Source of the DNA: a phage
Length of the DNA stretch: 49,912 nucleotides
Direction: 5' to 3' (one strand)
Sequence record: OZ335956.1
Shown: piece after piece, positions 29,552-47,766 of the stretch
Numbering within the stretch: position 1 is the stretch's first letter
How the letters are laid out: each line of letters opens with the position of its first letter
Position numbers and translations under genes: made by a program
The notes under the pieces: model-generated
The model's database searches: none
Told to the model about the DNA's origin: nothing
The model's input: the letters and a program-made list of their open reading frames with translations, nothing else

Positions 29552-30265
29552 ATGAAAGACTTTAATGACATTGAAACTATCGACTTTGCAGAAACTGGTT
29601 GCTCATTCACTCGCGAAGCAATAGCATCAGGCGGTTATTATCAGGCATTGAAAACGCCAACCTGTAAAGAAATCTCCGGTCGTCGATATAAGGGAACAAA
29701 TACGCCTGACGCAGTTCGTGATTTATGGTCTACCCCACGAGAGGTTATTGCATACCTTGAGGGTCGTTACGGAAAATACGATCTCGATGCTGCGGCAAGC
29801 GAAGAAAATAAAGTTTGCGAGAAGTTTTATTCTCAGGAAACAAACTGCTTAAAACGTTGGTGGGGTAAGAGCAAGCACGTTTGGTTAAATCCTCCTTACA
29901 GCCGCCCTGATATATTCGTCAAAAAGGCGATTGAGCAAATGGAGCACAACAATCAGATCGATATGTTGTTACCTGCCGATAATTCGACGGCGTGGTTTAC
30001 TGAGGCTCGACAGCACGCGGCTGAAATTATCTGGATTGAAGCGGATTTGACTGAAGATATCGACGGTAACGAGTATGCTCGATCCGGTCGCCTGGCCTTC
30101 ATATCCGGTGAAACTGGAAAGGCGGTTGACGGTAATAACAAAGGTTCGGTAATTTTCATTATGCGCGAACTGAAAGAAGGTGAGGTTCAACAGACCCACT
30201 ACATTCCAATCACAAGCATTTGCCCTTCGGTGAAGAACAAACGAGCAAAAGTGAGGAAAGTATGA
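29552..30265 (+). CDS. dam: DNA N6-adenine methyltransferase (Dam-like)
   Basis: catalytic NPPY motif in WLNPPYS; size and layout of phage Dam-type enzymes. Confidence 0.75.
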   Translation: MKDFNDIETIDFAETGCSFTREAIASGGYYQALKTPTCKEISGRRYKGTNTPDAVRDLWSTPREVIAYLEGRYGKYDLDAAASEENKVCEKFYSQETNCLKRWWGKSKHVWLNPPYSRPDIFVKKAIEQMEHNNQIDMLLPADNSTAWFTEARQHAAEIIWIEADLTEDIDGNEYARSGRLAFISGETGKAVDGNNKGSVIFIMRELKEGEVQQTHYIPITSICPSVKNKRAKVRKV

Positions 30266-37833: not shown

Positions 37834-38197
37834 ACAATGCCTCCTTAACACGATCCGCAATGCAGGAGTTTACGGTGATTGAGTAGTTCGCCACTCCCCA
37901 CAGTGCAATATTTCCTAACTCAGTGCGCATAGATGGATTGTTAAGCTGAATGATTGTTTCTCCAGTATCGTTATCGACGAAGCGAGATACTCCTAAATGG
38001 TCCACCACGCGCGTTACTCTGTTCACACACTCCATTGCATCACTTACACCATAATAGGCGCTCAGAGCGGCTCTCACAGCCTTCTCTTGCTTGTTGTAAA
38101 TCTTGCGCGCGATGTTATCGATCGCTACGTGCTCTTTCTCGTCAGTCTGGATTGCCGTGCTTGCTGTGAAGTCCAGGTCAGTGAACTGCTTAAACAT
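37826..38197 (-). CDS. hypothetical protein
   Basis: start MFKQFTD with RBS GAGGAAA; 123 aa. Confidence 0.5.
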   Translation of the reverse strand: MFKQFTDLDFTASTAIQTDEKEHVAIDNIARKIYNKQEKAVRAALSAYYGVSDAMECVNRVTRVVDHLGVSRFVDNDTGETIIQLNNPSMRTELGNIALWGVANYSITVNSCIADRVKEALYE

Positions 38198-38255
38198 GAT
38201 TCTTTCCTCATTTGCTGTTGATGGGATGACTATACCAGCCATCCCGGATGCGCGT

Positions 38256-38270
38256 TTAGCAATTCGTGCT
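38256..38270. promoter_or_regulatory. palindromic motif site, perfect TAGCA-N5-TGCTA
   Basis: tagcaattcgtgcta. Confidence 0.55.
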
Positions 38271-38271
38271 A

Positions 38272-38607
38272 TTAAGCAATATCGAACTCAGCGGCATATG
38301 CTTCCTTGAAGCCAGCTTCACGCATGGTGCGCTTGCTGATTTTGCGCTGGAATTTGTACTGGCTGTTAGGCATAACCCACCAGAAGCAGGCAGTTTCACG
38401 AACGATTTCATATTTACCGTAACGGGTGAAGGTGTCGCGTTCCATATCCGGCTGATTTACACAGGTCAGGAATTTAGCTGCCTTGTCTTCAGTTTTGATT
38501 TCTTCCCACACGAAGGAATCCATACCGTTAACCTTGCAAGCTACCATGATGTACTCAACGCCGTTTTCGATTTTGATGATTTCGTTACCGCGATTTTCGT
38601 ATTTCAT
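38272..38607 (-). CDS. hypothetical protein
   Basis: 111 aa with leader caggaacaggaaaATG. Confidence 0.5.
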   Translation of the reverse strand: MKYENRGNEIIKIENGVEYIMVACKVNGMDSFVWEEIKTEDKAAKFLTCVNQPDMERDTFTRYGKYEIVRETACFWWVMPNSQYKFQRKISKRTMREAGFKEAYAAEFDIA

Positions 38608-38672
38608 TTTCCTGTTCCTGATGTGTATCTCGTTTCGATGAGGTAATTATGCCAAATCACACCGATCGAGTT

Positions 38673-39377
38673 TTAACAAAAAGTGCTATTTGCGATCGCT
38701 TTGAAAAATCCCCTGGGTGATAGCGATCGTATCAGCTTGGTCTTTGCAGACTTGCCGCCCAGCTTGTTCTGCTGCGCAGAGTACCCGTCAGGCAGATTTA
38801 CTGGTTTTCTCTCCGGCATGACAAAGTCATCCGAGGTCCACAGGCACGTCTTCTTCGGGTAAGCATCGCGCGGCGCAATATACATCGGGAACCAGGGGTG
38901 TACGTCATTCTCCGGTAGATAGCCGCCATACTCCCAGGGGTCGAAAGTGTGGTCAGCTTTACGCCAGGCAGATGAAAGAACGCTCACCGGATTCTCAATG
39001 ATGTAAGTCACGCCCAGGCTATCGCCAATGTTCGCAGCAATCCGGGCGGTGGCAACAGCTTTCTCCTGGAATAGCGGATCACGTTCACGCTTGCTGGCAA
39101 AATGACGAGCGCCGCTAACAGCCAGGTCAGTGCACGGCGGGAATGCCATAATGAAATCCGGCTTGCCATACACACCCGCGATCGCATCTCGCTCGAACTT
39201 CTCACCAATGAAGACGTTCACATACTCAATATTCGGATGCTCCACCCGGGCATTGTGCTTTGCATAATCTCCGTGATCGGCTCCGTCAAAGTTGAAGCAC
39301 ATCACCTTATAGCCTTGCTTTGCCAGTTCATGACCAGCCAGGCCGGAACCGTCGAATAGTGACCAGATTAATTTCAT
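38673..39377 (-). CDS. compact DNA (cytosine-5)-methyltransferase-like protein (putative)
   Basis: 234 aa; motif I-like LFDGSGLAG, motif IV-like FPPCTDLAVSG, motif VI-like IENPVS. Confidence 0.45.
   Translation of the reverse strand: MKLIWSLFDGSGLAGHELAKQGYKVMCFNFDGADHGDYAKHNARVEHPNIEYVNVFIGEKFERDAIAGVYGKPDFIMAFPPCTDLAVSGARHFASKRERDPLFQEKAVATARIAANIGDSLGVTYIIENPVSVLSSAWRKADHTFDPWEYGGYLPENDVHPWFPMYIAPRDAYPKKTCLWTSDDFVMPERKPVNLPDGYSAQQNKLGGKSAKTKLIRSLSPRGFFKAIANSTFC
38674..38688. promoter_or_regulatory. palindromic motif site
   Basis: taacaaaaagtgcta. Confidence 0.55.
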
Positions 39378-39413
39378 TTGTTGCATTCTCCTGATTAACC
39401 TTATCGCTTACCC

Positions 39414-39539
39414 TTATCGCTTACCCTGACCGTTGCAAGCCGGACACGTGATTCGCTGCATTGTCCAGACTCCAGTGAATAAAGGAACCAGGGTAAATCC
39501 ACGACCAGCGCACTGACTACAAACCTGTTTAACTTTCAT
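39414..39539 (-). CDS. zinc-ribbon mini-protein (41 aa)
   Basis: CSQC...CPAC pairs; leader caaccaatcagaagaggaag matches the module leader. Confidence 0.4.
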   Translation of the reverse strand: MKVKQVCSQCAGRGFTLVPLFTGVWTMQRITCPACNGQGKR

Positions 39540-39602
39540 TGCTGCTTCCTCTTCTGATTGGTTGATGTGATGAATCATACCCTGCCAACCTGGTCCAGTC
39601 GT

Positions 39603-39617
39603 TAGCAAAAAATGCTA
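39603..39617. promoter_or_regulatory. palindromic motif site, perfect TAGCA-N5-TGCTA
   Basis: tagcaaaaaatgcta. Confidence 0.55.
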
Positions 39618-40226
39618 TTCCAATAATTGCTTATTATTCCATCAATGCTGGAATAGGTGGAATAATTTTGATTCCGATTGATTGCAAATGATGAAACATG
39701 ATTATTGCATGGTGTGCAACAGTTGGTTGATTTATTGCTGAGATTACAATGATTGTGAGAGGGAGGATCTAGTGTTACCCGGTTCGCCTGGTAGTCATCT
39801 CCATTTTTAGCAAAAAGTGCTACCGATTACACTTTAACTTGTCACTGCTGTAATATTTGTCTAGAATCACACTTGTGACAAAATTACGCACTGTGACACC
39901 TCACAATATACATATAGATATATGTATCTATATAATATATATAGTATTTTTTTTATTTATATATATAGATAATTATATTGTAATAATTGTGTATAGTTGT
40001 CTTACATTGTCTAGCGTACTGTTGGCATATTTCTATCTGCATGTTTATATATACAGTACTTTTTTGAGAGCTATATATTTCTATATGGACTCTAGACAGC
40101 TAGACAAATGTTACACGGCTTAAAATCGGCTTGCAGGCATTGACAACTCTACGTCGCGCTGTCACAATGGCAATTGTTGACACGTTATGACGCCATTTAC
40201 ACGCAAATAGACAAAGAGGATATATT
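39618..40226. promoter_or_regulatory. AT-rich divergent control region (candidate origin or early promoter cluster)
   Basis: non-coding; five GGAAT/ATTCC repeats at 39617-39675; sigma70-like TTGTCA-17-TAGAAT at 39839-39867; palindrome ATAGATA-tatg-TATCTAT; imperfect palindrome TGTCACAAT..ATTGTTGACA near 40160-40185. Confidence 0.5.
39808..39822. promoter_or_regulatory. palindromic motif site, perfect TAGCA-N5-TGCTA
   Basis: tagcaaaaagtgcta. Confidence 0.55.
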
Positions 40227-40742
40227 ATGAGCAATACCAATCAGGAATTAAAAATCACCGATATGATTCGCCTAACCTGCGATGCAATGTACCGCGACAA
40301 AGGCATGAAAGAGTTCTCTTTCGTGGCTGATGATATGGCGAGAGAGGCGGTAAAATTTTACTTCCGAGATCAGGATATTTCAGATGATGAGGTGGAGCGC
40401 GGAGCTACCGGGTGGGTGAACCAGAACCAGGGCGAGGTGGAGAAGCGATTCAAGTCGGCTTTCATCACCCCGATCATTACCCGACACTTCTGCAAGTATG
40501 GCAAGGTGGCAAAGGTTAAGGTAGGCAGGAATGACGCAGCAATCACTATGATAACCGTTACCGTTACCGACGAAGAGGCTCCGGTGAAGAAGCGCCGCAG
40601 CCGGAAGAAAGTTAGCCTGGCTGATTGCCTGGACTCGTTTGTGGTGGATGTGCGTAAGTTGGCTGATAGCGAGCTAATGACACGTGATGTGAATGAGATC
40701 GTGCGCCAGATGAAAGAGCATATTGAAAAGTGTGGACTGTAA
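40227..40742 (+). CDS. hypothetical early protein
   Basis: 171-aa ORF, first gene of rightward early block; RBS AAGAGGA. Confidence 0.55.
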   Translation: MSNTNQELKITDMIRLTCDAMYRDKGMKEFSFVADDMAREAVKFYFRDQDISDDEVERGATGWVNQNQGEVEKRFKSAFITPIITRHFCKYGKVAKVKVGRNDAAITMITVTVTDEEAPVKKRRSRKKVSLADCLDSFVVDVRKLADSELMTRDVNEIVRQMKEHIEKCGL

Positions 40743-47556: not shown

Positions 47557-47766
47557 ATGATGGTATCAACTGATAAGCTTTTCACTTGCACTAAAACTTC
47601 TGAAGTATTCGAACTTATCCATACTGATGATGGCGATTTCATGTATGACGGTTGCGACGCTTTCATTGAAGTGAAAGAAAGTGACTATGACGAAGGCGTT
47701 TATTATAATCCGGCAGTGAGCACTCAGTTTTTTACACCGATCGAAGAAGAAGGAGAAGGGGCATGA
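47557..47766 (+). CDS. hypothetical early protein
   Basis: 69 aa, acidic. Confidence 0.5.
   Translation: MMVSTDKLFTCTKTSEVFELIHTDDGDFMYDGCDAFIEVKESDYDEGVYYNPAVSTQFFTPIEEEGEGA

Follow-up and report, generated by a model that had tools for sequence, protein, structure and literature searches.

The 234-residue protein encoded on the minus strand at 38673..39377 of the window (the whole stretch of phage DNA analysed here, 49,912 nucleotides, record OZ335956.1) is very probably an active SAM-dependent DNA cytosine-C5 methyltransferase of the compact, Dcm-like family phrog_757, with Dcm-type CCWGG sites as its most likely targets. Its fold is that of C5-cytosine methyltransferases, and the catalytic cysteine, the ENx glutamate and the FxGxG motif are all retained. 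The family is widespread in Drexlerviridae and in many other enterobacterial phages; experiments back its assignment as a DNA C5-methyltransferase, and an ecological consequence is known. The activity of the protein studied here is predicted from a 57%-identical homologue, from its fold and motifs, and from its family membership.

Results

Identity, start site and placement of the gene

Bases 38000-40200 of the window matched Escherichia phage UP30 (OX638287.1; Tunavirus, Tunavirinae, Drexlerviridae) at 100% identity, and many T1-like coliphages and Shigella phages at about 90%. The window was circularly permuted relative to the UP30 record, with window position 38000 corresponding to record position 47609, and exceeded that record by 78 bases. 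The first-pass annotation had placed a 234-aa ORF at 38673..39377 and had given no strand. The ORF was present and reads on the minus strand from an ATG at 39377 to a stop codon at 38673-38675. A second in-frame ATG, three codons upstream at 39386, would extend the product to 237 aa. A Shine-Dalgarno-like AGGAG read from the sequence (39388..39392, minus strand) precedes the ATG at 39377 by 10 nt and the one at 39386 by just 1 nt, a spacing that favours the 234-aa start. The same start is also used by GenBank annotations and homologues of the gene. The UP30 GenBank record already labels the gene "DNA methyltransferase", and the orthologues in the BASEL phages LeonhardEuler and KarlJaspers are labelled "Dcm-like C5 cytosine methyltransferase". 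The gene is already known and annotated in the UP30 genome itself, and its identification here holds nothing new.

The methyltransferase gene is the first of a leftward block and lies beside a divergent, AT-rich intergenic region of about 600 bp. This region (39610..40226) contained no genes, was very AT-rich with TATATA-type runs at about 39900-40090, and divided the leftward methyltransferase block from a rightward block beginning at 40227. The same region holds the ends of the UP30 GenBank record (record end at about window position 40225). A promoter scan of 38400..40400 returned 8 promoter-like matches against 5.2 +/- 2.4 in shuffled sequences, which was no excess, and a terminator scan of the same interval found none. 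Directly upstream of the methyltransferase gene and on the same strand, an unannotated 41-aa ORF, MKVKQVCSQCAGRGFTLVPLFTGVWTMQRITCPACNGQGKR, was observed at 39414..39539 (minus strand), with its own ribosome-binding site (GAGGAAG) and two CxxCxGxG motifs resembling a DnaJ-type zinc finger. This ORF was matched by tblastn in only five phage records (UP30, LHE71, S2_02, SA30RD and Enterobacter phage Phc), two of which carry an annotation for it. Just upstream of the methyltransferase start, a perfect 13-bp tandem duplication (TTATCGCTTACCC x2, 39401..39426) runs across the stop codon of this small ORF and copies its GKR-stop coding end.

A widespread family of compact proteins

The phrog_757 "DNA methyltransferase" HMM matched residues 1-231 of the protein at profile positions 14-217 of 247 (E=5.3e-83, 278.9 bits), and the signature blocks of phrog_757 (FDGSG, FPPCTD, ENP, YPKKT and RSLTPRG) were all found in this single-domain protein. 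Homologues were detected by tblastn in 1,522 phage records, including phages of Escherichia, Klebsiella, Salmonella, Shigella, Campylobacter and Vibrio, and were often annotated as C-5 cytosine methylase. A search of 5.8 billion proteins gave 4,864 relatives, and 958 clusters were matched when 50%-identity representatives were searched. The median length in the family was 234 aa, with the 5th to 95th percentile spanning 218-272. Since nearly all members measure about 220-270 aa, the compactness of the protein is a family trait and not a truncation.

Against PF00145 the protein remained below the gathering threshold (11.3 bits versus a cut-off of 22, E=0.22, residues 61-105 only). PF00145 was matched at E<=0.01 by 8 of 51 close relatives; three of these eight, scanned singly, reached 24.7-28.5 bits, exceeding the cut-off of 22, in an alignment that spans motifs I-IV (profile positions 4-94). 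NCBIfam had no model for the protein. A sequence search of the PDB with the single protein gave nothing meaningful, the pyruvate kinase matches it returned at E of about 0.2 being spurious, and the 51-sequence family profile had zero matches among PDB sequences. Because these sequence searches of the PDB found nothing, a comparison of folds was needed.

Catalytic motifs are conserved

Conservation was counted in an alignment of 233 family members. The three motifs quoted in the first-pass annotation were recovered exactly: FDGSGLAG (motif I, the SAM-binding FxGxG) at aa 8-15 (39333..39356), FPPCTDLAVSG (motif IV, with the catalytic Cys82) at aa 79-89 (39111..39143), and IENPVS (motif VI, with Glu128) at aa 127-132 (38982..38999), all on the minus strand. 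In motif I, F8, D9 and G12 were kept in 181-202 of the 233 relatives, and the PF00145 positions to which the relatives aligned include this region. In motif IV, C82 was found in 226/233 members and G89 in 232/233, and hhalign paired FPPCTDLAVSG with GFPCQPFSLAG of E. coli Dcm. In motif VI, E128, N129 and P130 were present in 228, 224 and 231 of the 233 sequences, respectively. As C82, G89, E128, N129 and P130 are near-invariant across the family, the quoted motifs are not chance matches. The FxGxG motif, the Pro-Cys nucleophile and the ENx glutamate of C5-methyltransferases were therefore all present and conserved (F8-D-G-S-G12, P81-C82 and E128-N-P). The UP30 enzyme differs from the classical motifs in having PCT instead of PCQ and ENP instead of ENV.

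The canonical motif VIII (QxRxR) and motif X (GNxVP) were absent from the protein. Two other conserved blocks, Y-P-K175-K176-T and R217-S-L-S/T-P-R-G, stood at the places expected from the order of the secondary-structure elements. The first, YPKKTCLWT (aa 173-181; 38835..38861, minus strand), contains K175/K176 and forms a beta-strand at residues 177-181 of the structural model; Y173 was conserved in 228/233 members, K175 in 223, T177 in 221 and W180 in 227. It is the probable counterpart of motif VIII. The second, IRSLSPRG (aa 216-223; 38709..38732, minus strand), runs into the last helix of the model (residues 222-232), and R217, P221 and G223 were kept in 224, 223 and 225 of the 233 members. 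This block is the probable counterpart of motifs IX/X.

Predicted fold and the missing target-recognition domain

An AlphaFold2 model of the protein was built from a 51-sequence alignment and was of high confidence, with a mean pLDDT of 91.4 and a pTM of 0.89. The protein has the class-I SAM-methyltransferase catalytic fold of the C5-methyltransferase type, and the catalytic domain takes up about 186 of the 234 residues. A Foldseek search with the model returned DNMT3A/B at E of about 1e-7, and the DNMT3 enzymes were its nearest structural neighbours. The first-pass annotation had judged the protein short for a complete C5-methyltransferase with a target-recognition domain, and this is correct: only about 31 residues connect the motif VIII-like YPKKTCLWT strand to the C-terminal helices (segment 181-211, family median 31 aa), and a sizeable target-recognition domain between motifs VIII and IX is absent throughout the family. 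The variable part of the segment, aa 182-210 (SDDFVMPERKPVNLPDGYSAQQNKLGGKS; 38748..38834, minus strand), is the sole candidate recognition element and would be the part of the protein that reads the target. Two variants of the segment were found in the family, G[YF]SxQ and NPGW. UP30 carries G-Y-S-A-Q, as most members do, and KarlJaspers carries NPGW. When the family profile was compared by hhalign with Dcm of MG1655, 22 columns around the PC motif aligned (E=0.072). No homology to the Dcm recognition domain was detected in this comparison, and motifs VI-X were left unmapped by the alignment. With the alignment to E. coli Dcm confined to the 22-residue PC motif, the recognition domain of Dcm/EcoRII was not inherited by this family.

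A homologue forms 5-methylcytosine

Wang et al. isolated mutants of phage K42 that escape retron Ec86 (bioRxiv 10.1101/2023.08.16.553469; Cell Rep 2024;43:114857). The K42 genome is 95.4% identical to that of KarlJaspers, and in all four escapers the lesions fell within a 711-bp dcm gene or a short way upstream of it; expression of the Dcm protein was toxic only with the retron present (bioRxiv 10.1101/2023.08.16.553469). By LC-MS, 5mC in the retron msDNA was raised by wild-type K42 Dcm and not by a C82A/E128A/K175A/K176A mutant, K175 and K176 being named there as substrate-binding residues (bioRxiv 10.1101/2023.08.16.553469). Changing the CCTGG of the msDNA to AATGG, ACTGG or CATGG abolished defence against K42, and msDNA of the empty-vector control in MG1655 contained little 5mC (bioRxiv 10.1101/2023.08.16.553469). 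MG1655, the assay strain, carries its own dcm. Because little 5mC was found in the control msDNA despite this gene, the K42 enzyme does something that host Dcm does not, and the two enzymes may prefer different sites or substrates.

The KarlJaspers gene bas06_0055 (Hanrivervirus, Drexlerviridae) is exactly 711 bp long, and its 236-aa product is 57% identical to the 234-aa UP30 protein over 229 aa, with C82, E128, K175 and K176 at the same positions in both. Together with the K42 data, this identity and the four matching residues give the family its experimental support as a DNA C5-methyltransferase. The first-pass annotation had also considered that the fold might have been repurposed. Such a protein could be an enzyme transferring a non-methyl group (for example carboxymethyl from Cx-SAM), an enzyme acting on RNA or tRNA like Dnmt2, or a non-catalytic DNA-binding protein. 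This reading is highly improbable. A literature search for direct methylome or restriction-digest data on C5 methylation in T1-like phages returned nothing beyond the study of retron Ec86 and the comment in the BASEL paper discussed below; a further retron paper rich in mentions of methyltransferases concerned an N6-adenine enzyme and was irrelevant.

Target sites in the genome

The genome contained 99 CCWGG sites, against a Markov expectation of 104 and 52 +/- 7 in dinucleotide shuffles, and CCWGG was thus not avoided. This would fit a phage that shields such sites instead of losing them from its genome. The CCWGG specificity of the K42 type is taken from the name "Dcm", with the mutation of CCTGG in the msDNA as its only support. 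It is possible, if doubtful, that the UP30 enzyme is an active C5-methyltransferase with a specificity other than CCWGG, reading a shorter or different motif, with loop variants that may differ in target. The variable segment is very short, has two variants, and is the place where UP30 differs from the tested KarlJaspers/K42 type; the similarity to E. coli Dcm is confined to the 22 columns of the PC motif; MG1655 Dcm did not produce the high msDNA 5mC that the phage enzyme did; and the nearest structures are those of the DNMT3 enzymes, which have a small TRD and are specific for CpG. On these grounds we tentatively consider a minimal C5-methyltransferase family that reads DNA without a conventional target-recognition domain, in which loop variants may set different or relaxed targets and the UP30 member is perhaps no CCWGG "Dcm". 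However, each of the three CCTGG substitutions in the msDNA abolished defence against K42, and the genome shows no avoidance of CCWGG. T1-like phages also form plaques efficiently on McrBC-positive K-12, which would argue against abundant RmC products. An enzyme acting on CCWGG is the reading we prefer.

Eight of the 99 CCWGG sites, located within 38712..39342, fell inside the 705-bp methyltransferase gene, where about 1.4 would be expected, and the gene was the densest 705-nt stretch of CCWGG in the window. A conserved role of this cluster in self-targeting or autoregulation was considered and rejected, as the LeonhardEuler orthologue has six such sites and that of KarlJaspers only two. All eight sites were found in ordinary codon pairs (x-Leu-Ala/Gly, Pro/Ala-Trp, Phe-Gln-Glu, Pro-Arg). 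The cluster is probably an effect of lineage and codon composition and not of self-regulation.

Other site counts were obtained for the whole window. GGCC (72 observed versus 113-121 expected) and GGWCC (28 versus 34-51) were under-represented, CCGG was over-represented (162 versus 118-135) as was CCSGG, and GATC (242) was near the dinucleotide-shuffle expectation and below the Markov expectation of 310. These biases may reflect avoidance of restriction sites that the two phage methyltransferases leave unprotected.

A second DNA-modifying enzyme

The first-pass annotation had proposed a Dam-like enzyme at 29552..30265. The 237-aa ORF at these positions on the plus strand encodes a bona fide phage Dam-type N6-adenine DNA methyltransferase, its product matching positions 2-165 of 169 of PF05869 (E=1.2e-69, 233.8 bits versus a cut-off of 28.1). 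Two DNA-modifying enzymes are thus encoded, as had been suggested, one supported by this Pfam match and the other by the C5-methyltransferase fold, the motifs and the active 57%-identical homologue.

Discussion

By analogy with the C5-methyltransferase family, Cys82 of the PC motif would attack C6 of a flipped-out cytosine, Glu128 of the ENP motif would contact N3/N4 and protonate N3, and SAM bound at the FDGSG motif would donate its methyl group to cytosine C5. The loop of about 31 residues would stand in for the large target-recognition domain. During infection, phage and host DNA would be methylated, most likely at CCWGG. Together with the phage Dam, the enzyme could blunt methylation-sensitive restriction, for example by EcoRII-type enzymes, and such an anti-restriction strategy, already raised in the first-pass annotation, is plausible.

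The BASEL study described N6-adenine and C5-cytosine methyltransferases as abundant in Drexlerviridae, and in its data methyltransferase genes bore no simple relation to the restriction resistance of these phages (PMC8594841). We therefore also considered an active enzyme whose selected function is not the evasion of restriction but the regulation of phage or host genes, replication or packaging, or the countering of another methylation-sensitive defence. Such a function appears unlikely. It would agree with the high sensitivity of most Drexlerviridae to restriction-modification, with the missing pattern between methyltransferase genes and resistance (PMC8594841), and with a small benefit in K-12, whose Dcm already methylates CCWGG. 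In contrast, no CCWGG-cutting system was reported among those that BASEL tested (PMC8594841), and the spread of the family over virulent phages of many genera (the 1,522 records) is what would be expected of generic protection. The methylating activity would also be a liability, as methylation of the msDNA of retron Ec86/Eco1 would lead to abortive infection. Triggering of this retron, as seen for the K42 homologue, is the sole demonstrated consequence of the enzyme.

For the annotation of UP30, our analysis confirms the GenBank label only. It predicts that UP30 DNA contains 5mC besides the 6mA formed by Dam, and that retron Ec86/Eco1, a native system of E. coli BL21, senses UP30; the latter is relevant to phage therapy and to studies of host range. 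What interest remains is in the family and not in the UP30 copy, as a very small C5-methyltransferase that lacks a target-recognition domain and has no sequence match to a solved structure.

Compared with known systems, the enzyme is distinct from its partner Dam, which has an unrelated fold and chemistry (N6-adenine) and whose gene lies about 8.4 kb away on the opposite strand and not adjacent. The annotation of KarlJaspers shows the same pair, Dam and a Dcm-like enzyme, in a similar context: the Dcm-like gene sits in a run of small leftward genes located downstream of the lysis genes, and Dam is encoded at a separate place. Within this run the Dcm-like gene has a middle position in KarlJaspers and comes first in UP30, and the variable loop of about 31 residues is of the NPGW type in KarlJaspers and G-Y-S-A-Q in UP30. 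The classical PF00145 enzymes (M.HhaI, M.HaeIII and E. coli Dcm / M.EcoRII) are 90-240 residues longer, contain a large target-recognition domain and have QxRxR where the UP30 protein has KK. With a loop of about 31 residues in place of the large domain, the phage enzyme most resembles the small-TRD DNMT3 enzymes. Its identity to the eukaryotic DNMT3A and DNMT3B catalytic domains is only 14-17%, and the DNMT3 enzymes recognize CpG and work as oligomers with regulatory domains.
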